A DNA stretch of 64,000 bases from an uncultured Candidatus Saccharibacteria bacterium (GTDB lineage Bacteria; Patescibacteriota; Minisyncoccia; Phycocordibacterales; DATDWN01), in assembly GCA_964551495.1 (NCBI GenBank), contig CAZKCA010000002.1:19648-83647 (forward strand). Direction: 5' to 3'. The notes beneath the pieces were generated by a model. The model was not told the origin of the DNA, searched no databases, and saw only the letters and a list, made by a program, of their open reading frames with translations. A program made the translations under genes and the position numbers. Positions within the stretch are counted from its first letter, which is position 1; every line of letters begins with the position of its first letter. Below, piece by piece: positions 873 to 57,238 of the stretch.

Positions 873-2279
873 TTATTTTTTGGAGATTTTTGGGCCGTTT
901 TCAGTATCTTTTACAGAAAAACCTAGATTTTCTATCTTTTTTCTTATTTCATCAGATTTTTGCCAATCCTTTTCTGCTCGAGATTTTTCTCTTTCGTCGA
1001 TTAGTTTTTTGACTTCTTCTGGTATTTCTACAATTTCAATTGAATCAAGATTTAAACCAAACACTTTATCAAAATCTAAAATTAGGTGTTTTTTTTGGGA
1101 GTTGTCTAATGAATCATCTTTTATTATATCCCAAGTTAAGGCGAGTGCTTTTGGTGTATCTAAATCATTATTTATAAATTCTTTGAATTTTTCTTTGTAG
1201 GTTTCTGTTTGGTTACTGTCTGTTTCTGGACCAAATTCTAAAACTTTTTCTTTTAGTCTTTCCAGGGCATTTTTAGAAGCTTCTAATGATTGCCAGCTAA
1301 AAAGTAGTGGGGAAGAGTAGTGGGCTGTCAGTATTAAATATCTAAAAGAAAGAGGATCAAAACCTTTGTCTAAAATCGTTTGTAGTCTGATGAAATTTTC
1401 TTCAGATTTGGCCATCTTACCAGACTCCACATTTAAAAAAGCATTGTGTATCCAAAAATTAGCTAAAGGTTTTTCGTTTGCACAAGTTGATTGAGCTATT
1501 TCATTTGTGTGGTGCACTGGTATATGATCTATTCCTCCAGTGTGGACATCTATTGTTTCTCCCAAAATCTCTTTTATCATTGCTGAACATTCTATGTGCC
1601 AACCAGGAAAACCCATCTTGTCACTTCTTGGACTTTTCCATTCTTGAAGTCTGTGTTCTCCAGGTTTTGAAAATTTCCATAATGCAAAATCTTGTATATC
1701 TTCTTTTTCTCCTGTTGGTATAACTCTAGCGAATTCTTCCTCCATATTACTTCTGTCTATACCAAAAAGTTTTTGATATTCTGGAAATTTTGAAGTTTTG
1801 AAATATATTGCGTCATCTGTAATATAAGCGAAATCTTTATCCAGCAGTTTTTCGATCATATTTTTTTGAGATTCTATATGTTCAGTAGCTTTAGGAAAAA
1901 TTATTTTTTCTCTATGTATATTTAATCTATCTAAATCTTCAAAAAATTTTTCTGTATAAAACTTAGTTATCTCTTCTGCATCTTTTCCTTCTTTTTTGGC
2001 TTCTTTTTCTATTTTGTCTTCGCCAAAATCCGCATCTGAAGTTAGATGCCCAACATCAGTTATATTTATTACCTGTTTTACAGAAAAATCATTATACTCA
2101 AACATTCTACGTAGGGTGTCTGCAAAAATATAACTTCTCAGATTTCCTAAGTGTGCATAGTTGTAAACAGTTGGACCACAGTTATACATTAATACTTCTC
2201 CTTCTTTTATAGGTCTAAAAGTTTCTTTTTTGCCAGTAAGACTGTTTTGTAGTTTTATTTCCATTTTATTTACATCCAT
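873..2279 (-). CDS. cysS: cysteine--tRNA ligase
   Basis: 468 aa with [17 protein letters not shown] (HIGH region) and KMAKSEENF (KMSKS). The true start may be M6 (ATG 2264), which would remove the 10-nt overlap with the upstream gene. Confidence 0.95.
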
Positions 2280-29968: not shown

Positions 29969-31233
29969 TGAATAAATATGTACTTACATTTATAATTTTA
30001 ATAATATTTTTTGGATTCAGGTATTCTTTTGCTGATACTGTTTCTGAATTACAAAATAAAATAGAAGATAGATCAAAACAAATACAAGAAATAGAAGAGG
30101 AAATAAAACAATACACCGAGGAGGTAAATAGAATAAATAAACAATCTAAAACACTATCTAACGCAATAAAAAGTTTAGATACTACTCAAAAGAAAATAAG
30201 TGCTGATTTAAACTTAACCACTCAAAAAATAAACCGAGCAGAATTAACCATAGAACAACTTAACAACGAAATATATAATACTGGAATCAAACTATCTAAA
30301 AATAGAGAAATTGTAGCTAATACAATAAGAACAATAAACCAAGCTGATGAACTAAGTTTAATTTCGCTTGTTTTTTCAGGAAAAAGCATAACTGAAGTTT
30401 GGGAAGATTTAGATTCAATTAAAAAACTTCAATATGAAGTAAGAAACCAATCTAACGAGTTAACCATGATAAAAAAAGAAATGGAAGACAAAAATTTAAG
30501 TTTGGTTAATCAAAAAAGAGAACTGACAAATTATCAAGGTGATCTTGTTGGCCAAAGACAAGTAATTGAGGAGAATAAAAAAGAAAAAAGTAACTTATTG
30601 AATCAGACAAAAAATCAGGAACAAGCATACCGAACACTAATTGAAGAAAAAGAAAGAGAAAAGGATCAATTTGAAAAAGAATTATTTGAATATGAGTCTC
30701 AATTAAAGATATTTATAGACCCAACAGGATACCCTAGTCCAAGAAATGGAATTTTATCTTGGCCGTTAGACAATGTCTACATAACTCAATCTTTTGGTAG
30801 AACAGTTGCTGCTCAAAGACTTTATGTTTCTGGATCACACAACGGAGTAGATTTTAGAGCTAGTATTGGAACAAAGGTTAAATCTGTTTTAGATGGAGTA
30901 GTAGTTGGCACAGGAAATACAGATGCTTATCGCGGATGCTACTCTTTCGGTAAATGGGTAATGGTAAAACATCCTAATGGTCTTTCTACTATATATGCAC
31001 ACCTCTCTGTTATATCAGTATCTCCTGGGGTAGAAGTTAGAACTGGAGATACAATAGGTTTTACTGGTAATACAGGATACTCTACTGGCCCACACCTACA
31101 CCTAGGACTTTATGCTACCCAAGGAGTAAGAATTGAAAAACATGCAACCAGTAGGGGATGTAAGGAGGCAACAATGCCACTGGCAGATATAAAAGCATAC
31201 TTAGATCCTCTACCTTATTTACCTGCACTATAA
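29968..31233 (+). CDS. M23 family peptidoglycan metalloendopeptidase with N-terminal coiled coil
   Basis: Signal/TM, a long coiled-coil region, then HNGVDF...GNTGYSTGPHLHLG (LytM/M23 motifs). Confidence 0.88.
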   Translation: MNKYVLTFIILIIFFGFRYSFADTVSELQNKIEDRSKQIQEIEEEIKQYTEEVNRINKQSKTLSNAIKSLDTTQKKISADLNLTTQKINRAELTIEQLNNEIYNTGIKLSKNREIVANTIRTINQADELSLISLVFSGKSITEVWEDLDSIKKLQYEVRNQSNELTMIKKEMEDKNLSLVNQKRELTNYQGDLVGQRQVIEENKKEKSNLLNQTKNQEQAYRTLIEEKEREKDQFEKELFEYESQLKIFIDPTGYPSPRNGILSWPLDNVYITQSFGRTVAAQRLYVSGSHNGVDFRASIGTKVKSVLDGVVVGTGNTDAYRGCYSFGKWVMVKHPNGLSTIYAHLSVISVSPGVEVRTGDTIGFTGNTGYSTGPHLHLGLYATQGVRIEKHATSRGCKEATMPLADIKAYLDPLPYLPAL

Positions 31234-31266
31234 AACCCTCCCTACTTTTTCAAGTGGGAGGGTTTT
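31232..31266. terminator. bidirectional hairpin terminator
   Basis: AAAACCCTCCC...GGGAGGGTTTT. Confidence 0.7.
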
Positions 31267-31363
31267 GTTCTTTATCATCTTTTAATGCTACGTAGTATAA
31301 AGCAAGAACCGTTATAAAAAGACAAAATAGAGCTGTTAACACTAAGGCCATATCAGGATTCAT
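31250..31363 (-). CDS. possible 37-aa single-TM peptide, translationally coupled (ATGA overlap) to the upstream 147-aa ORF
   Basis: My translation is MNPDMALVLTALFCLFITVLALYYVALKDDKEQNPPT. The ATG (31363..31361) overlaps the TGA (31362..31360) of the preceding gene. It is not in the ORF track because it is under 60 aa. Confidence 0.3.
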   Translation of the reverse strand: MNPDMALVLTALFCLFITVLALYYVALKDDKEQNPPT

Positions 31364-31803
31364 TTTCTCACCTTCAATAAAAAGTCGAGAGCGTCCATTA
31401 CGGCCTTGAATTTTTCAAGTGAACAAGACCTTACAAAATCACCCTGTTCTATATTTTCAAAAAAAGATAAAACTTTACTTATAGAATACAGATGATTATC
31501 ATAAAAACCTTCTTTGTTCCTAATGTTCATATTCTTATGAATACTTTTTAGTTTTTTATGATAGATTTTAATTAGTCTAACAAGACATTTATATTCTTCT
31601 CCTCCGTGGATAAAATAAGGTTTATTGCCTATAATAAAATCCACCTCTGCTTCATTTCTAATAAACAAGATTAGAAGCTTTATCTTTTTTAGATCTTCCT
31701 TAGATTCTGTTATCTTTTTCAGCGGATCATAATTAGAATCTCTAATCATTACTAACATTAAAAGACAGAGAACTAAAACAAAGAAAACCACAATGAAGAA
31801 CAT
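31360..31803 (-). CDS. hypothetical membrane-anchored protein
   Basis: 147 aa with an N-terminal TM. AGGAGG SD lies 7 nt before the ATG. No family was recognised. Confidence 0.5.
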   Translation of the reverse strand: MFFIVVFFVLVLCLLMLVMIRDSNYDPLKKITESKEDLKKIKLLILFIRNEAEVDFIIGNKPYFIHGGEEYKCLVRLIKIYHKKLKSIHKNMNIRNKEGFYDNHLYSISKVLSFFENIEQGDFVRSCSLEKFKAVMDALDFLLKVRK

Positions 31804-31924
31804 CTCAAACCCTCCTAAGCGAAAGATTATAATAAAAAAGCAATTAAGTCAATTTCATTATTTTATCTTTTTTAATAAAAATTGTTATAATATAAACATA
31901 TTTAATTAGTTAAAAAATAAAAAT

Positions 31925-32179
31925 ATGAAAAGAAATGTTGGTTCTTTAGATAGAGCAATTAGAATAGTTTTGGGACTACTTTTTATATGGTGGAGCACAA
32001 GCCTTTCAGGACTTCTCTCTGGGCTAACGCTTATTATAGGAACTATATTGTTTATTACAGGAGTAGTAGGAAGATGTTTGATGTATAAACTACTAAAAAT
32101 GAAAACTAATAAATGTGAACACTGCGGTAAAGGAGAATGTGACTGCAATAATATCCAAACTAATACAAACAACCAATAA
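31925..32179 (+). CDS. DUF2892 (YgaP-like) small membrane protein with Cys-rich tail
   Basis: MKRNVGSLDRAIRIVLGLLFIWW...GRCLMYKLL matches the DUF2892 pattern. The C-terminus is CEHCGKGECDC. Confidence 0.7.
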   Translation: MKRNVGSLDRAIRIVLGLLFIWWSTSLSGLLSGLTLIIGTILFITGVVGRCLMYKLLKMKTNKCEHCGKGECDCNNIQTNTNNQ

Positions 32180-32204
32180 TAAAATAAGTAAGATGCCCAA
32201 TAAA

Positions 32205-32241
32205 AAATAAACACAGCATATTTTTGCTGTGTTTATTTTTT
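32205..32241 (+). terminator. rho-independent terminator
   Basis: AAATAAACACAGCA-tatttt-TGCTGTGTTTATTT followed by a T-run. Confidence 0.75.
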
Positions 32242-32602
32242 GATACCTAAAATAAAGGGTAGGGGACTTCCCTATTGGGAATAGAAAATTAGTCACTAAA
32301 TCTTTTTATGAGATAAAAGATATTTGACGTATTAGGGGAATAGATAAATATACACGATAAACTAATAATCATAATAAAAATAAACAAATTACATTGAACA
32401 AATTGTTTAAAAGATCAATAAATTATTTTAATAGATTTAAAGAACTTTCTCTCTTATATAGAGTGACCAAAGATATATTGTGCGACGTATAATGTATTTA
32501 TTCCCCTCTGTAAATAAAGACCTTAAATGCAAACTTGAAAATAAAAAATAAATGGAAAAACTCCCTACCCTGTGGTAGTATGGTCCTCGGAGGAATGGAG
32601 AA

Positions 32603-32665
32603 ATGCAGAACAACTACTTTGATCCCCTGGAATTTGAAAAAGGCGGCCGACTTATATCAAATTAA
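32603..32665 (+). CDS. possible 20-aa upstream ORF MQNNYFDPLEFEKGGRLISN, coupled (TAATG) to the next ORF
   Basis: GGAGG (32589-32593) lies 9 nt upstream of ATG 32603. The stop TAA at 32663-32665 overlaps ATG 32665. Confidence 0.25.
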   Translation: MQNNYFDPLEFEKGGRLISN

Positions 32666-33027
32666 TGATTGTTATAATTATTATTTCAATAATACCCCTA
32701 ATGATCTTCGTACAATCTTCTATGAAGTCACTTAGGCAAGACCAGAACAAAGTAAGTTGGATAATGGAAACTAAATTAGAACAAATTGGGCCCTACCACT
32801 ACGTAGGATATGCCAAAGAAAACGGAAAAGAAGGTATCCGAGTTGTTACAATCAACTTAGTAGATTGTCCTAAAGAGTTTAAGTTTCGATTTCCTAAAAA
32901 AGGAGATTTTGTCCGTGTTGAACTTTACAAACAAGAAGAAATAGCAGAGACAAAATCTGGAGACCTTATACTCACCCTTCCTAAAGATTTTATAAAAATG
33001 GGAATACTAGATCCTCAATGTAAATGA
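32665..33027 (+). CDS. hypothetical protein with N-terminal hydrophobic anchor
   Basis: 120 aa (MIVIIIISIIPLMIFVQSS...). No family was recognised. A terminator follows. Confidence 0.5.
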   Translation: MIVIIIISIIPLMIFVQSSMKSLRQDQNKVSWIMETKLEQIGPYHYVGYAKENGKEGIRVVTINLVDCPKEFKFRFPKKGDFVRVELYKQEEIAETKSGDLILTLPKDFIKMGILDPQCK

Positions 33028-33037
33028 CACCAAACTC

Positions 33038-33059
33038 AAAGCCCCTAATCGGGGCTTTT
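33038..33059 (+). terminator. rho-independent terminator
   Basis: AAAGCCCC-taatc-GGGGCTTT. Confidence 0.75.
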
Positions 33060-33101
33060 CTTTATTCAAAAAATGTGATAATTTTTTGTTTGGAGGCGCC
33101 G

Positions 33102-33200
33102 GTGACATTAAAAGAATTGGCGATCGGTTGTCTGACTGGTCTTGCTGTTTTTTCAATAATGACAGCGGCTAGCATAATGTTTTTTCTGAAATGGAGGTGA
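33102..33200 (+). CDS. candidate 32-aa hydrophobic peptide (GTG start) MTLKELAIGCLTGLAVFSIMTAASIMFFLKWR
   Basis: GGAGG (33092-33096) lies 5 nt before GTG 33102. An extended -10 TGtGATAAT is at 33074-33082. The stop TGA overlaps the SD region of the next peptide. Confidence 0.4.
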   Translation: MTLKELAIGCLTGLAVFSIMTAASIMFFLKWR

Positions 33201-33205
33201 CAGGC

Positions 33206-33274
33206 ATGTTTTCCAACGAACAAACCGTTTATGCACTCATTGTCCTTGCCTGGGCAATAACATTTCTTTTCTAA
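33206..33274 (+). CDS. candidate 22-aa hydrophobic peptide MFSNEQTVYALIVLAWAITFLF
   Basis: GGAGG (33193-33197) lies 8 nt before ATG 33206. A terminator follows 9 nt after the stop. Confidence 0.4.
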   Translation: MFSNEQTVYALIVLAWAITFLF

Positions 33275-33282
33275 CCCACAAC

Positions 33283-33304
33283 AAAAGCCCCTTTCGGGGC
33301 TTTT
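33283..33304. terminator. bidirectional terminator
   Basis: AAAAGCCCC-tttc-GGGGCTTTT. Confidence 0.75.
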
Positions 33305-33314
33305 ATCGTGAATA

Positions 33315-33755
33315 TTATTTATTCATAGCAAGAGCGGACTCATATTTACCCCAACAAGCTTTGGATGAAATCCAAGGCTGAGTTCCCTGCTTTTCATACA
33401 ATTTTCTTGCATAAGCAGTGTTACCTTCTATGGAATAAATATTATAATTCTCTTTTTCTGCTGTCTCTAAGTGGTAATACTCGTTTATTTGCATTACACC
33501 CACGTCAGCATTATTTACTTTTCCTCTATGAACTTCTCCTTTGGAGTCTAGATGTCTAAATGTTGATTCACATTTAGCAATCTCAATCATAATCGGAATA
33601 TCTGAGAAGTACTGTCTAATATACTGTTCAGTACTCATTAATTTTTCAACGTCCTTCTTTGAAACTTCTCTCACTAACTGAGGCTTTTGTTCTGGTATTT
33701 CGGTTACAGTAACTGGACTGTTAATACCTGATATACTTCCCAAAGCCATAAACAA
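33315..33755 (-). CDS. lysozyme-like / lytic transglycosylase (SLT-type) domain protein
   Basis: IAKCESTFRHLD...NNADVGVMQINEYYH shows the catalytic E-S plus the GxMQI(N) pattern. A signal-peptide-like stretch (LILQFTVVSLFMALGSISG) extends upstream of the first canonical start, so the true start is uncertain. Confidence 0.7.
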   Translation of the reverse strand: MFMALGSISGINSPVTVTEIPEQKPQLVREVSKKDVEKLMSTEQYIRQYFSDIPIMIEIAKCESTFRHLDSKGEVHRGKVNNADVGVMQINEYYHLETAEKENYNIYSIEGNTAYARKLYEKQGTQPWISSKACWGKYESALAMNK

Positions 33756-33966
33756 ACTAACTACTGTAAATTGTAAAATAAGACTTCTGTTAAGTTATAA
33801 TTCTGAAATTTACTCGGAGAAATGAAAACTCAGTAAATTACTGAGTATGTATATATTATAGCACCTTATGATTTATTTGTCAAAGCAAAACACACAAATT
33901 GGACCTTGAAAAGGGTTATAAAACCTATATTTTAAGCCATTTATTATCTTTTTTTATATAAACAAT

Positions 33967-33990
33967 AAAACTTGCTTTTTAGCAAGTTTT
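33967..33990 (-). terminator. terminator downstream of the giant surface protein gene
   Basis: AAAACTTGCT-tttt-AGCAAGTTTT. Confidence 0.7.
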
Positions 33991-34017
33991 ATAAGTTATG
34001 CACTAATTCCCTACCCT

Positions 34018-37000
34018 TTAGAACTCCCTGTATATCAAAGGCTTGAGAGAAAATACAGCTGTGACAGTTTTAGGTGAATTTATTGTCAAAACACAGTTTC
34101 CAGTACCAGAACAATCCCCTTGCCAACCAACAAATCTCCAAGCGGAAGAATCTGGATAAGGAGTTAAGGTAACAACAGTACCAGAAGCATAATTTCTAGA
34201 ACAATTTGATCCACAGTCTATCAATGTATCAACACTTTTAACAGTTCCACCATAAGTTTTGAAAACTTCCAAGTTATGAGTTGTATTAGGAGTAATAGTT
34301 ACAGAGTCACTATCCCCTCCTTCAGTATTTGAACAGGTTAAAGTATAAGTTGTATTGTTTATTATTCCATTTATATCCTCACTACCTCCCAATACAGATT
34401 TTGATCCACTCCAACCACCAGATGCTGTACAACTAGTTGGATTTCCCGTTGTAGACCAAGAAATAGTTGTGGATAGAGGAGCATTACCTGTTGTTGGATT
34501 ACCACTTATTGTTACAGTAGGAACTGTTCCTTGTTTTTGCCAAGTCAATCCATACCCAGCCCCACCTCCATTTTCATACATTTCATAAACAAGAGTTCTC
34601 TGGCCAGCAGATAATACAACAGGAGAACCTGAGGTGCTTCTTATTGCATGGTCAGACCAATCATTTACCAAATATCCACTATCTGGAACACCATCGTTGT
34701 TATCATCAAAATATGCACGAGAACCATCATCTGACGCCGTAGTAAATACATATGTTCCAGCTGTAAAATTGAATCTTCCTTTCCATCTTACAGAATAAGT
34801 ATCTGTCAAAGTTCCTGGACCAGCAGATCCCCAGTCAACATTCGGCAGAGGTGAAGCTGTATTTGGTACAGGAGAAGCTAGGACAGGTCCAGTTATTGGA
34901 TTTATAGCAGCTAAAGTATTAAATGCAGTTCCTGTATAAGCACAACCATACATTTGATTTGTCCCTACTGTGGCAGGGTTACAAGAACCACCTGAGGCAG
35001 CTCCGACAGTAACTGAAGCATACCTTGTTACAGATGCTGGAGAAGCGTCAGCTCTATCACACCTTATACCAAAAGTATAATTTGAGCTTGGAGATACATC
35101 TGTATAACCACCACTTACACTCTTTGATCCGCTCCAACCAAACCCAGTTCCATTATACGCATAACAAGAAGTTGGGTTTCCCGTTGTAGACCATGTCAAT
35201 CTTGAACTATTTCCGGTTGTTATAGAAGAAGGTGTTGCTGTAAATGTTAATCCTATAGTAGGAGAAGATATAACAGGTACGGATACGGAAGTCGCACAAC
35301 CAGCATCTTTTCTTATTTCTATAGTATAAGTTCCTGTTCCAGAAAGAGGATAAACGTTTATTTGATTTGGTCCTCTATAAGTTGTAGGAACATTAAAACC
35401 ACTAGGACTATAAGTTATAGAGGCATTGTCTATTTCTGATTGTGTCCCGAAATTACCATAAATTATAAGGTAGCCGTTCATGTAAACTTCTGGAGTGTAC
35501 ACACCTGTACTAGCATTATAACCGTTATATCCGCTGACACTAAAGTTACAAGCATTAGGATTTACTTTGACAGCAACAGAATCCACAACATCAGCAGTCC
35601 CAGATTTACTACAAATTATATTGTAAGTATAAGTTCCAGCGGTTAAACTAGATCTTAATTCAGAACCACTAGGTACTGATTTGGATCCAGACCAATAACC
35701 AGAAGCTGTACAACTAGATGGACTCCCAGTTGTAGACCAACTAAGTGTTGTTGAGTTTGTAGGTAGGGTCATATTTGTTCTAGAAGCAGAAAGGTCCACA
35801 GTTATAGGAGAAGTTGCCCCAACTGTTACTGTGGCATTTGCAGAAACAGGAGAAAGACCTGCTTTGCTACATGTAATACTGTATGTATATGTCCCTGCGC
35901 TAGGAATAGAAACACCCTGACTTCCGCCGGATGTAGACCTAGACCCAGTCCATGCTCCACTAGCTGTACAACTATCTGGAGCACCTGTTGTTGTCCAAGT
36001 AAGTGTAGAAGAGTTTGAAGGCCATGTCATAGATGTTGGGCTAGCAGACAAAGTCACTCCTATAGAAGCTGGAGCAGATAGATTTACTGTAAGAGTAGCC
36101 AGCGTTCCTCCAGCTGTTGTATCTCCTCTTCTTTGCAAATAAAATACAGTTCCATTGGAAACATTGGACACAGCAACACTTCTACTACCTGAAAGATGCT
36201 GAGCCTCTAGTGTTCCAGAAGTACTTCCCCTTCTTACATCGTGATCACAATTTACATCAGAATATATAGTTGTAGCACCAGTTGCATTTGAAGTAACTAT
36301 TGGATTTGGGTTAGCATAAAAATTTGTAACAGAACAAGTTGGCTGAGTAACAACAACAGTGGCTTCTTTGTAATAATCCGCAACACCAGTCTTTGTACAA
36401 GTTATTCCATATGTATAAGTTCCAACAGTCAGACTAGATCTTACCTCTGAACCACCCGCTGTACTTTTTGCCCCACTCCAAGCTCCACTAGCTGTACAAC
36501 TTTCAGGATTTCCTGTTGTAGACCAAGTAAGTGTTGTAGAGTTTGTGGGTAGTGTCATAGATGTTGGAGTAGCTGAAAAATCTACAGTAATAGGTTCTGG
36601 TGGGACAGGACCAACTCTTGTAGCCATTGTCACTGGTCCAACGTCTCCATCGTTTGCCAAAGACATACCAATAGAAACAATAACTGTTCCAGCAGGGGCT
36701 CTTAGAACTCTTTTTAATGAGCTAATTGATGGATATCCATGTAACCTACAACTCCCTATATAAGGATCCTCCCAGCCTTTATATCCTGCGGTGTTATTAT
36801 TCCCAATATCAACAAGACTTGCATATTCTTGATAATAACAAGGTTTTTCTGGTGAATCATCTATATATGGACTAGCACTACCCATACCTCCAGAAGTAGG
36901 CCTTCCGGATCTTGTTCCCCATGTCCAACCAACAGCATATCTTCCTGTTTGATATGGAGCTCCTGGGTTTGCCGGGTCATTTCCTGGACCATTTGTACAA

Positions 37001-40766: not shown

Positions 40767-40896
40767 TTAAATGAAATCTCGTTGAGGCACTGTATTTTTG
40801 GAGACTTCGCAAGCGCGACGGCGCGAGACCGAGCAAAATTTCAGCAGAAATTTATGCGTGCTCCAAAAATACAGTGCCGAGAAAGAGATTTCATTT
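40767..40896 (+). repeat. nested-hairpin palindromic element, family 1, copy A
   Basis: 13-bp outer stem (TAAATGAAATCTC/GAGATTTCATTTA), internal loop, 18-bp perfect middle stem (GGCACTGTATTTTTGGAG) and a 57-nt core ACTTCGCAAGCGCGACGGCGCGAGACCGAGCAAAATTTCAGCAGAAATTTATGCGTG. Confidence 0.85.
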
Positions 40897-42849: not shown

Positions 42850-42980
42850 AATCAATAAATCCTTGCCTTGCCATACCTTTTGTGGAGCACGCATAAATTT
42901 CTGCTGAAATTTTGCTCGGTCTCGTGCCGTCGCACTTGCGAAGTCTCCACAAAAGGTACGACTTCGACGTGATTTATTGA
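42850..42980 (-). repeat. nested-hairpin palindromic element, family 1, copy B (inverted relative to the other copies)
   Basis: The reverse complement carries the same core with a compensatory pair change (GCGC..GCGC becomes GTGC..GCAC). It has unique outer (ATCAATAAATC) and middle stems. It lies 21 nt upstream of the dnaK ATG. Confidence 0.85.
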
Positions 42981-44527: not shown

Positions 44528-44649
44528 TTAAATCTTATTGAGGTATGGTATTTTTGGAGACTTCGCAAGCGCGACGGCGCGAGACCGAGCAAAATTTCAG
44601 CAGAAATTTATGCGTGCTCCAAAAATACTATACTGAAAAAGAGATTTAA
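44528..44649 (+). repeat. nested-hairpin palindromic element, family 1, copy C
   Basis: The core is identical to copy A. The stems are different but complementary (TTAAATCT/AGATTTAA and GGTATGGTATTTTTGGAG/CTCCAAAAATACTATACT, the latter with two G:T pairs). Confidence 0.85.
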
Positions 44650-44665
44650 TGATAAATATAAACCA

Positions 44666-53369: not shown

Positions 53370-53491
53370 AAACAAACTCGTTGAGTTGATATGATTTTGG
53401 AGACTTCGCAGTCGGGTAGACGAGACCGAGCGATTTTTCAGCAGAAAAATACGCGTGCTCCAAAATTATATCAATGAAAAAGAGTTTGTTT
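53370..53491 (+). repeat. nested-hairpin palindromic element, family 1, copy D
   Basis: Outer stem AAACAAACTC/GAGTTTGTTT, loop GTTGAG, middle stem TTGATATGATTTTGGAG/CTCCAAAATTATATCAA (one G:T). The core is diverged, with the hairpin ATTTTTC-AGCA-GAAAAAT. Confidence 0.8.
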
Positions 53492-53498
53492 AAAAATT

Positions 53499-53921
53499 TT
53501 ATTTCAAAATAGTCAAAAAGGCTCCAGTTGCAATCATAGCAACTCCGACTATTTTATAAACAGTAAACCCTTCTGACAAAAATAGTCCAGCCAAAATTGC
53601 TACAAAAACAATACTTAACCTATCTATAGCAGAAACAGTTGTTGCATCCCCATTTTTTAGAGCAAAAAAATAGAAAAGCCAAGATAAAGCTCCTGCAACT
53701 CCAGAAAAAACAATAAACAAAAACTCTCTTGACCCAAAAAAGTCTGTAGAAAAACCATTAAATTTTTTAAGTGAAAAAGAAACCAATATTAGAAACAAAG
53801 CCATTACAACAGAACGAATTGTTGTCGCCAAAGTTGAATCAATATCTTTTAATCCTATTTTTCCAAAAATAGCAACAAGAGAAGCAAAAACAGCTGATAA
53901 AATTGCAAATAATATCCACAT
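53499..53921 (-). CDS. EamA-like (DMT superfamily) small membrane transporter
   Basis: 140 aa with 4-5 TM helices. The N-terminus MWILFAILSAVFASLVAIFGKIGLK is typical of single EamA-domain proteins. Confidence 0.7.
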   Translation of the reverse strand: MWILFAILSAVFASLVAIFGKIGLKDIDSTLATTIRSVVMALFLILVSFSLKKFNGFSTDFFGSREFLFIVFSGVAGALSWLFYFFALKNGDATTVSAIDRLSIVFVAILAGLFLSEGFTVYKIVGVAMIATGAFLTILK

Positions 53922-56029: not shown

Positions 56030-57238
56030 TTAAATTATAGTTTCCATTATTCCTCCTCCGAGACATTTTTCTCCTTGGTAGAATACAGCGGACTGACCTT
56101 TTGCTACTCCATTTTGGGGTTTTTCAAAAGAGATTTTATAACCTAATTCTAACTTTTCTACCTTACAATTTTGTTTTTCTTGTCTGTATCTTATCCTAAC
56201 CTGACAATTTAAAGGAAATTCTGGCTCTACCCCATCTATAAAATGAATATCTTTTATAAAAATCTCTTTTGTATTGAAAACTAAATCTAGCTGATTTTCT
56301 TTGTCTGCTACAGTTATAGTATTTTTTTCTAGGTCTTTTGACACAACAAAAAAACTTGGGTCATTTGGAGTCTTTTTGGTAATAGTAAATCCATGTCTTT
56401 GACCTATGGTATAAAACAGTGCCCCATCGTGAATCCCAACAACCTCTCCTTTGGAATTTAAAACATCTCCTTTTTTAGTTTCAATGAAGTGTTCAAGAAA
56501 ATCTTTCATATCTACTTTTCCAATAAAACAAAGTCCTTGGCTATCTTTTTTTGTGGCCGTAGGAAGACTAAACTTCTCTGCCAGTTTTCTAACTTCTGGT
56601 TTTGTTAAGTGTCCTACAGGGAAAAGTGTTTTTGAAAGCTGTTCTTGGTTTAAAGTGTAAAGAAAATAACTTTGATCTTTATTTTTATCATTTGATTCAT
56701 GAAGTTCAAACCTATAGTTTGATAAATCTTGTTGAGACAAGAGGTTTCTGAAACATTGCGAGCGCGACGGCGCGAACACGAGGAATTTTTCAGCAGAAAA
56801 ATATCCGTTTTCAGAAACCTCTTGAGGAGAAAGAGATTTATCAAATACCAAATTCTGAGCATAGTGTCCTGTGGCTATAAAATCAGCCCCCATCTCTTTG
56901 GCTTTATCTAGAAAAACTCCAAATTTTACATACTTATTACAAAAAACATCTGGATTTGGAGTCCTACCGGCTTTGTATTCAGAAATCATATAGTCAACTA
57001 CTTCTTTTTTATATTCCTTCTCACAATCAATAGTTAAAAATGGGACATCCAAAATGGCACAAACTCTCATAGCACTTCTCCTTTCTTCTTTCCAGTCACA
57101 AGGTAAAAACTCTGGATGCCAAACTTTTAGAAAAACCCCCATGACGTCAAAACCGGCTTCTTTAAGCAAAGCCAAAGAGACAGAAGAGTCCACTCCGCCT
57201 GATAGACCAACAAAAACCTTTGGCTTTCTATTTTCCAT
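56030..57238 (-). CDS. mnmA: tRNA 2-thiouridine(34) synthase MnmA, carrying a ~37-40 codon in-frame insert derived from a palindromic element
   Basis: VGLSGGVDSSV PP-loop, ATGHYAQ, KDQSYFLY and GLCFIGK. There are 58 residues between ATGHYAQ and KDQSYFL, whereas my recollection of characterised MnmA proteins is ~20. A TATAAA lies 7 nt upstream of the ATG. Confidence 0.95.
   Translation of the reverse strand: MENRKPKVFVGLSGGVDSSVSLALLKEAGFDVMGVFLKVWHPEFLPCDWKEERRSAMRVCAILDVPFLTIDCEKEYKKEVVDYMISEYKAGRTPNPDVFCNKYVKFGVFLDKAKEMGADFIATGHYAQNLVFDKSLSPQEVSENGYFSAEKFLVFAPSRSQCFRNLLSQQDLSNYRFELHESNDKNKDQSYFLYTLNQEQLSKTLFPVGHLTKPEVRKLAEKFSLPTATKKDSQGLCFIGKVDMKDFLEHFIETKKGDVLNSKGEVVGIHDGALFYTIGQRHGFTITKKTPNDPSFFVVSKDLEKNTITVADKENQLDLVFNTKEIFIKDIHFIDGVEPEFPLNCQVRIRYRQEKQNCKVEKLELGYKISFEKPQNGVAKGQSAVFYQGEKCLGGGIMETII
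56720..56841 (+). repeat. nested-hairpin palindromic element, family 1, copy E, located inside the mnmA coding sequence
   Basis: Outer stem GATAAATCT/AGATTTATC, loop GTTGAG, middle stem CAAGAGGTTTCTGAAA/TTTCAGAAACCTCTTG. The core is CATTGCGAGCGCGACGGCGCGAACACGAGGAATTTTTCAGCAGAAAAATATCCG. Confidence 0.78.

Follow-up and report, generated by a model that had tools for sequence, protein, structure and literature searches.

A palindromic element lying in frame within mnmA, and its structured relatives in Patescibacteria genomes

A 64,000-nt stretch of contig CAZKCA010000002.1, from an uncultured Candidatus Saccharibacteria bacterium (hereafter the window), carries five copies of a palindromic repeat, designated A to E. 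Four are intergenic, as judged from lists of open reading frames (ORFs), and the fifth, copy E, lies within mnmA, the gene for tRNA 2-thiouridine synthase (Table 1). A covariance model (R1) run with filters off scores the five copies at 67-84 bits and finds nothing else significant in the window, and repeat finding and alignment agree. For an exact-type match of the repeat the chance expectation is 0. The folding z-scores of the five copies lie between -6.2 and -8.5. Copy E is 74% identical to copies A-D; its fold has an energy of -43.7 kcal/mol (z -6.4), and that of the mRNA strand is about as good.

An earlier note on this DNA, made from the letters alone, had reported that the mnmA ORF reads through copy E without a stop, that 58 residues lie between ATGHYAQ and KDQSYFLY, and that the excess length of the protein equals that of the element. 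All three observations hold: the 402-aa ORF is present and the peptide quoted from it is correct, 58 residues separate ATGHYAQ from KDQSYF, and insert-free orthologues have 15-19 residues at this site. The limits given for the element (56720-56841) were essentially right, falling slightly short of the full palindrome (56718-56845). The ORF product matches MnmA structures in the PDB (E~1e-91, HMMER) and all three MnmA Pfam domains (PF03054, PF20259, PF20258), and the PP-loop SGGVDSS, Cys100 and Cys237 are invariant across the MnmA alignment. HMMER splits the PDB alignments into residues 2-128 and 183-399. Copy E encodes residues ~132-173 (FDKSLSPQEVSENGYFSAEKFLVFAPSRSQCFRNLLSQQDLS), adding ~42 residues at the tip of a surface beta-hairpin (strands 127-133 and 175-181) in the N-terminal catalytic (HUP/PP-loop) domain.

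An AlphaFold2 model of the window MnmA, built with 113 homologues, has a mean predicted local distance difference test (pLDDT) of 87 and a predicted template-modelling score (pTM) of 0.87. Foldseek gives it target-normalised template-modelling (TM) scores of 0.89-0.91 to 2HMA and to the Escherichia coli MnmA-tRNA complexes 2DER/2DET/2DEU. The pLDDT falls below 50 only at residues 142-162, the sole long low-confidence stretch. In the model the enzyme fold around the insert is intact, and the insert is best read as a tolerated, probably disordered surface loop. The tolerated surface loop proposed earlier thus agrees with the low pLDDT at the hairpin tip, but the loop belongs to the catalytic domain and does not lie between domains. 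From the conservation of the frame, the natural reading is that the element would be translated as a disordered surface loop of ~42 residues.

Close MnmA relatives were found in a search of 5.8 billion proteins, and their DNA was then fetched. The same insert is present in L002 (88% amino acid identity; Logan SRR27197515) and L127 (91%; ENA ERZ27293400). With the window, this makes three independent assemblies that agree on the same in-frame insert between diverged flanks, which excludes the assembly artefact that the earlier note had kept in view. Its other reservation was that orthologues might carry the extra segment without element DNA. Every tested orthologue with the segment has element DNA, and insert-free orthologues exist. 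A third relative, L001 (84% identity), joins ...TCTCCTCAA directly to CAAGATTTATC... and is without exactly 90 nt (window 56732-56821). On each side of this segment stands a direct repeat that reads (T)CTCAA in the coding direction and TTGAG on the plus strand. L001 keeps the outer stem of 12 bp, TTTGATAAATCT/AGATTTATCAAA, whose homologues in copies A-D are the outer arms. Because the outer arms are retained, we rejected L001 as an empty site; it is an internal deletion derivative. The alignment with close orthologues, suggested earlier as a way to find the boundaries of the insert and any target duplication, therefore gives an exact indel within the palindrome and no clean target duplication. 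In L003 (77%) the hairpin is 75 nt shorter and the core is missing; R1 gives no match anywhere in the 21 kb of L003. The length differences among close relatives are all multiples of three (-90, -75 nt), and the element is in frame and stop-free in every mnmA relative examined. L003 also has, 8 kb upstream of its mnmA, a bAvd gene (1247-1588, minus strand; PF22296), whose product is accessory to diversity-generating retroelements.

The insert DNA is conserved beyond what its host gene would predict. Between the window and L127 the element has 1 difference in 128 nt, against 173 in 1081 (16%) for the rest of mnmA; at third positions the counts are 1/42 and 124/361 (p=2e-6). Between the window and L002 the element differs at 9/128 positions and the rest of mnmA at 166/1057, with third positions at 4/42 and 117/353 (p=0.001). 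Four of the nine differences from L002 make up a compensatory pair in P1 and another in P2, where CGCG..CGCG of the window reads CTCG..CGAG in L002. Within P2, pairs 13-38, 14-37 and 18-32...22-29 (alignment A3) show compensatory changes. In a model-fitted alignment of the six in-gene mnmA copies, 91% of cells are paired, against 40-53% with the partners slid, and double changes occur in 18/25 pairs, a result reached by 0/500 shuffles; in P3, 7/10 pairs covary among these copies. The 42 insert residues are 100% identical between the window and MnmA relative P0121, with 38 other positions differing. Since the conservation covers synonymous positions, and other lineages use other frames, it is the fold that is constrained and not the peptide. 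The insert DNA is thus conserved above mnmA synonymous sites and its fold is kept by compensatory changes, so that selection acts on the nucleic acid rather than, or besides, the peptide. The choice offered earlier, between a passive passenger and a new peptide module, was incomplete in this respect. These comparisons show that the fold of the 'CAGCAG' strand is under purifying selection in the gene, whichever way it lies relative to transcription.

More distant orthologues carry the element at the same site. The TGHY-to-KDQSYF spacing is 15-19 residues in insert-free Paceibacteria orthologues, a spacing found in 45 of the 119 closest MnmA homologues, and about one third of the closest homologues have 30-60 extra residues at the insert position. 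The DNA of five distant orthologues with different-looking inserts was fetched, and all five have an R1 match at the same gene position (26-59 bits), three in sense and two in antisense orientation, and in one of these copies the P3 stem is flipped yet still paired. Across lineages the element occupies the mnmA site in three frames/orientations, giving the unrelated peptides YFSAEKFLVLAPSRS, RNFSPEKYP and EEFFNRKISVL. Two scenarios fit: the site may have been struck repeatedly, or an old insertion may have inverted in place, e.g., through recombination between its own arms.

Other length variants are found among these orthologues. In P0111 (L122:4001-5419) and P0071, additional stretches of 15-45 residues are inserted elsewhere, in the N-terminal domain and in the C-terminal barrel. 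L122 has a single R1 match, so its other inserts are not family members by R1; the extra inserts of the two proteins may belong to other element families. P0044, P0074, P0081, P0086, P0087 and P0090 share a recurrent variable-site form of ~35 residues with the motif SF(S/F)xV(L/F)GASQPD, which may be a remnant of another or older element at the MnmA site.

To delimit the family, a 30-nt core pattern (CGAGNNANNTTTCAGCAGAAANNTANNCGT) was run on a species-representative genome collection. It returned >118 stretches, all from Patescibacteria by record titles among the matches listed. The same pattern had 0 matches in viral contigs (IMG/VR), so there is no evidence for a phage vector. Members are ~85-130 nt and fold as long hairpins. 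Stem P1, with a median of 19 bp, is self-complementary and different in sequence in nearly every copy. The core follows the plan ...GAC UUGC GA GCGC-GACG-GCGC GA GCA CGA GGAAUUUUUC-AGCA-GAAAAAUAUCC GUR... and is a three-way junction with tandem G.A in P2 and an almost invariant P3. Over 60 non-identical sequences, 94% of cells are paired in the model, against 33-61% with the partners slid, and the covariation score is 0.45, against <=0.12 in controls; 0/500 shuffles reach 0.45. The helices P2, P2a and P3 were not imposed by the search, save the invariant part of P3. In P3, 100% of cells are paired and four pairs covary.

The mismatches in P1 distinguish the two strands. With a symmetric mismatch penalty, we counted 64 G.U against 15 A.C (p=2e-8) and 52 G.A/A.G against 7 C.U/U.C, an asymmetry which argues that the folding of one particular strand is preserved. 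The fold strand is on the C-rich strand in 51 loci and on the other in 25. This ~2:1 bias (p=0.004) is too weak to assign an IS200/IS605-type lagging-strand mechanism.

We did not find a known RNA or element class to which the family could be assigned. No Rfam 15 family reaches the gathering score in the window, and when the window copies and five loci covering both types were scanned permissively, all that appeared were chance matches below threshold. Known ribozymes, introns, riboswitches and small RNAs were rejected for want of an Rfam match. ARAGORN found no tRNA or tmRNA in the window, so the element is not tRNA-derived by this test. An intrinsic terminator was rejected because there is no enrichment of T-runs, which follow 7/82 intergenic copies in sense and 13/82 in antisense orientation, against 6/82 and 8/82 at control positions. 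Diversity-generating retroelements, integron attC sites and the signal recognition particle, 5S and 6S RNAs were set aside because their anatomy does not match, and the TIGR-Tas family was set aside as well. A literature search returned no description of palindromic elements, transposable elements of the miniature inverted-repeat type (MITEs) or matching RNA motifs in the candidate phyla radiation (CPR)/Patescibacteria. As far as could be found, the family is previously undescribed, and it is Paceibacteria-wide.

A second version, type 2, is ~85-95 nt long. It agrees with the first in P2, P3 and the junction, but its P1 is short and it has an additional GGUC/GACC helix. Ten of its 13 copies lie 50-300 nt from a same-strand tRNA gene, and the copy in L086 is between two tRNA-Arg genes of a six-tRNA array. 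The type-2 fold has its own covariation support (P2, P3) and matches no Rfam family. Its position next to tRNA genes suggests that the core can be transcribed as a small RNA, and the type-2 copies may be genes for an undescribed small RNA that is akin to the dispersed elements.

The in-frame insertion in mnmA is not a one-off. Counting as genic those copies spanned by a long ORF with >=40 residues on either side of the element, 19 of 114 complete copies (~17%) are genic, and 18 of the 19 are in real genes, from at least nine host gene families. One representative per host family (MnmA apart) was confirmed by Pfam, and the other TsaD and PheT copies were assigned by evident similarity. Orientation is near random (10 sense, 9 antisense). 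Of the recurrent peptides, GSATARARGIFQQKNIR comes from the sense frame most often used and GYFSAEKFLVLAPSRSQ from the most used antisense frame; the ComEC and Dus copies are read in other frames. The consensus core is stop-free in 5/6 frames, and for whole elements 42% of all frames are open, compared with 17.5% in shuffles of matched composition; openness is thus largely intrinsic to a stop-poor family. The suggestion that intergenic copies carry stops in the equivalent frame is right for copies A, B and C, which have a TAA there, and wrong for copy D, which is fully open in that frame. With copy D open and the core stop-free in 5/6 frames, the earlier proposal that only the genic copy is constrained to stay open does not stand. 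Among 19 'intergenic' copies with abutting same-strand ORFs we found no split or frame-shifted host genes, the flanks being judged by eye and not all by Pfam. Enzymes that handle tRNA make up six of the nine host families (MnmA, TsaD, MiaA, Dus, PheRS-beta, ArgRS). This may be a real bias or may follow from which genes tiny genomes contain.

Table 1. Features of the mnmA locus, repeat copies in the window, type-2 loci and host genes of the family. Positions are those of the window unless a locus is named; orientation for host genes is that of the element relative to the gene.
Feature	Position or locus	Strand or orientation	Description
mnmA coding sequence (tRNA 2-thiouridine synthase)	56030..57238	-	402 aa, frame intact through element
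Copy E	56718..56845	+	Complete palindromic element, 128 nt; fold-bearing ('sense') strand antisense to mnmA; outer stem TTTGATAAATCT/AGATTTATCAAA, internal loop, stem P1, three-way-junction core
Segment missing from L001	56732..56821	+	90 nt (30 codons); DNA and protein comparison
Three-way-junction core	56745..56817	+	Inner P1, P2, P3; model R1 83.6 bits, E 3e-21; covariation
P2	56757..56778	+	Helix UGC / tandem G.A / GCGC, GACG loop
P3	56782..56806	+	Hairpin GGAAUUUUUC-AGCA-GAAAAAUAUCC, bulged A; most conserved part of the family
Predicted tryptic peptides of MnmA			SLSPQEVSENGYFSAEK, FLVFAPSR; span element-gene junctions
Copy A	40774..40896	+	Intergenic, between convergent ORFs; R1 78.4 bits
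Copy B	42851..42975	-	Intergenic; R1 77.2 bits; only window copy with minus fold-bearing strand
Copy C	44530..44652	+	Intergenic; R1 78.4 bits
Copy D	53371..53495	+	Intergenic, between EamA-like gene and alaS; R1 67.2 bits
Type-2 copy	L076:5852-5945	-	
Type-2 copy	L086:758-851	+	
Type-2 copy	L089:5632-5725	+	
Type-2 copies	L036, L037, L043, L082, L091, L098, L112		
TsaD	L019, L041, L064, L095, L103, L105	sense	6 genomes, same site in all
PheT	L020, L047, L061, L101, L104	antisense	5 genomes
ArgS	L097	antisense	1 genome
MiaA	L093	sense	1 genome
Dus	L073	antisense	1 genome
UvrD-type helicase		sense	1 genome
PGM/PMM mutase		sense	1 genome
ComEC		sense	1 genome
MnmA	Window	antisense	1 genome

The intergenic copies of the window show some further features. 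Copies A and C share a 100% identical 73-nt core and have 7 differences, concentrated in a 9-bp distal P1 patch with the pairing kept (two full compensatory pairs and two changes to G.U). One possibility for this hypervariable yet paired patch is gene conversion of the core between old copies. Copy D replaces a terminator-like hairpin (CCCTCGGCATCTTGAATAGGTGTCGGGGG) of L002 and L003. The neighbouring gene differs as well: the window has a 140-aa EamA-like membrane protein gene (53499-53921, minus strand) upstream of alaS, where L002 and L003 have cytidylate kinase (cmk), and the more distant L124 and L126 have the EamA gene. In a comparison of the copy D site with these relatives, no clean boundary or target-site duplication (TSD) could be read. 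GC skew flips from ~+0.14 to ~-0.15 at ~30000-34000, with a cumulative skew peak near 32 kb, which is a terminus-like (or gene-strand) switch; all five copies are 8-25 kb to one side of it. Diverged direct repeats of ~97-219 nt, at spacings of 258-1281 nt, occupy 34377-36594 (families D1, D2, D6; 62-78% identity). This region looks like a repeat-domain protein gene.

The explanation we favour, with moderate confidence, is that the family is a mobile repeat, non-autonomous and dependent on its structure, whose copies are translated where they have entered permissive loops. The mnmA segment would be a copy of a dispersed Patescibacteria repeat made of a variable long stem capped by a conserved three-way junction. 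Such a family would spread, or would once have spread, as a non-autonomous mobile element, its folded single strand (single-stranded DNA or RNA) presumably being recognised by a trans-acting factor. Copies would later be trimmed by hairpin-promoted deletions between short direct repeats, giving the states seen in L001 and L003. Because the core is stop-free in 5/6 frames, insertions into tolerant loops of essential genes would survive, as with Rickettsia palindromic elements (RPEs).

Several points weigh against mobility. No mobilising enzyme turned up, no search for REP-associated tyrosine transposases (RAYTs) having been made. We did not find a clean pair of empty and filled sites or an unambiguous TSD, and the sole indel, in L001, is internal to the palindrome and deletion-like. 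Copies within one genome are often old and diverged, as copy E is from A-D at 74% identity, and are not a recent burst. Long-term conservation of the fold at one orthologous locus would fit a host-level function better than a decaying selfish insertion. The in-gene covariation counts come from six copies in a model-fitted alignment, and translation of the insert is suggested by frame conservation only.

The main alternative, possible if less probable, is that the host benefits from the core as a structured nucleic acid, which may be the gene of a small RNA or a site in single-stranded DNA. The core would exist as stand-alone type 2 in tRNA operons and as dispersed copies, those in ORFs would be dual-coding, and mobility would be incidental or ancient. 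A host function would account for a fold kept long-term at orthologous loci by compensatory change, for an element evolving 2-40x more slowly than mnmA synonymous sites, and for same-genome copies that are diverged and each well folded. It would also suit the 10 of 13 type-2 copies near a same-strand tRNA gene, with their own covariation support, and wobble pairs specific to one strand. However, with 10 sense and 9 antisense copies the orientation is so near to random that most copies would need their own, putative promoters for a sense RNA. The element has also been lost from many orthologues and relatives with no apparent harm, and it matches no known RNA family. In its fullest form, which we put forward tentatively, the three-way junction would be a new functional nucleic acid of Patescibacteria (a small RNA or single-stranded DNA signal) with tRNA-co-transcribed and SINE-like (short interspersed nuclear element) versions, and the copies in essential genes (MnmA, TsaD, PheT, ArgS, MiaA, Dus and others) would be truly dual-coding. 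Selection on the fold would then override the synonymous drift of the host genes in the dual-coding copies.

It is improbable that the element is instead removed or skipped at the RNA or translation level, by intron-like excision at the hairpin's base or by ribosomal bypassing like that of mitochondrial byp elements, to leave a mature MnmA without the peptide. The mRNA hairpin is very stable (-43 kcal/mol), the insert peptide is predicted to be disordered, and CPR rRNA genes carry unusual intervening sequences, all of which would be compatible with removal. If the insert were removed, however, neither frame nor stops would matter, yet 18 genic and seven mnmA copies are in frame and stop-free across five frames, indels among relatives are multiples of three, and no split genes were found among the 19 candidate flanks. 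The element also occurs in genes in both orientations, which a sequence-specific RNA mechanism would not tolerate, and Rfam gives no ribozyme or intron match.

Less probable again is a lineage-specific functional module of MnmA, such as a tRNA-contacting loop, of which the intergenic copies would be derivatives or coincidental lookalikes. The 42 residues identical between the window and P0121 while 38 others differ, and the many hosts that are tRNA-binding enzymes, would agree with such a module. Against it, different lineages have unrelated peptides at the same site, conservation extends to synonymous positions, with compensatory substitutions in the stems, close relatives have deleted 25-30 residues, and AlphaFold2 gives the segment no confident structure. 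An artefact of assembly or binning, in which a repeat was collapsed into mnmA, can be dismissed: repeats can mis-join the contigs of metagenome-assembled genomes, but three independent assemblies from different projects agree between diverged flanks, and five more orthologues have diverged versions at the site.

Conservation of the fold in coding sequences above the level of synonymous sites means that a nucleic-acid-level function, whether selfish or host-serving, is overlaid on the protein coding of enzymes central to translation. Palindromes that colonise essential genes in frame, formerly regarded as peculiar to Rickettsia and a few other pathogens, are now seen across Paceibacteria, a major group of uncultivated, ultra-small bacteria. 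The family explains many of the length differences of 30-60 residues among CPR housekeeping proteins. It also provides a new RNA/DNA motif, including a version linked to tRNA operons, and the covariance model lets annotators recognise the inserts.

Several known systems resemble the family in part. Bacterial MITEs with in-frame fusions include ERIC (enterobacterial repetitive intergenic consensus) sequences, Correia/NEMIS (Neisseria miniature insertion sequence) elements and the Coxiella QMITE (PMC10969869, PMC5896051). Like these, the present elements are small, multicopy and do not code by themselves; they have inverted repeats at their ends, their transcript would form a hairpin, and they are sometimes found within ORFs. 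MITEs are defined by conserved termini that match a parent insertion sequence (IS) and by TSDs, whereas the conserved part of this family is central and the arms are variable. Outer inverted repeats are subfamily-specific (AAATCTC...GAGATTT; AAATAG...CTATTT), and the outermost paired bases vary between copies. We saw no IS with the same ends and no clear TSD; the (T)CTCAA repeat at the L001 indel is internal to the palindrome, and a slippage deletion would explain it just as well.

Repetitive extragenic palindromic sequences (REPs) are simple hairpins of 20-40 nt with a GTAG or CGTC tag (PMC3733652). The likeness to REPs, to their composites, the bacterial interspersed mosaic elements (BIMEs), with their RAYTs, and to IS200/IS605-derived palindrome-associated elements is in the strand-specific conservation of single-strand folding, and a trans-acting enzyme that recognises the folded strand would be a plausible means of mobilisation. 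In contrast to REPs, the family is without the GTAG/CGTC tag, and no RAYT or TnpA gene was seen, no search for RAYTs having been made. Its branched junction and long variable stem are without a REP counterpart. The GC-cluster and 'byp' elements of yeast mitochondria are also GC-rich, palindromic, mobile clusters that land in the protein genes of a very AT-rich genome. Ribosomes skip the byp elements, for which being in frame is not required, whereas the present family is always in frame and free of stops.

RPEs (Ogata et al. 2000, as summarised in a 2024 review, PMC10969869) are the prominent earlier case of elements that colonise genes in frame. The earlier note had named them as the analogue, and the 18 in-frame genic copies with recurrent peptides bear this out. 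Both are palindromic repeats of ~100-150 nt in a reduced, AT-rich genome, both are found in intergenic positions and in frame in unrelated housekeeping genes, and both encode a recurrent peptide at predicted positions compatible with the protein fold. The present family differs in having a covarying three-way-junction core with a stem sequence different in nearly every copy, in occupying one orthologous site in both orientations, and in being under in-gene selection stronger than that on synonymous sites. To our knowledge, such properties of core, orientation and in-gene selection have not been reported for RPEs. All core matches listed are in Patescibacteria records, and we treat the family as an analogue and not as a member. 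The phenomenon works as RPEs do, though the family is not shown to be an RPE: its anatomy and host phylum are different, and it is under structural selection inside genes.

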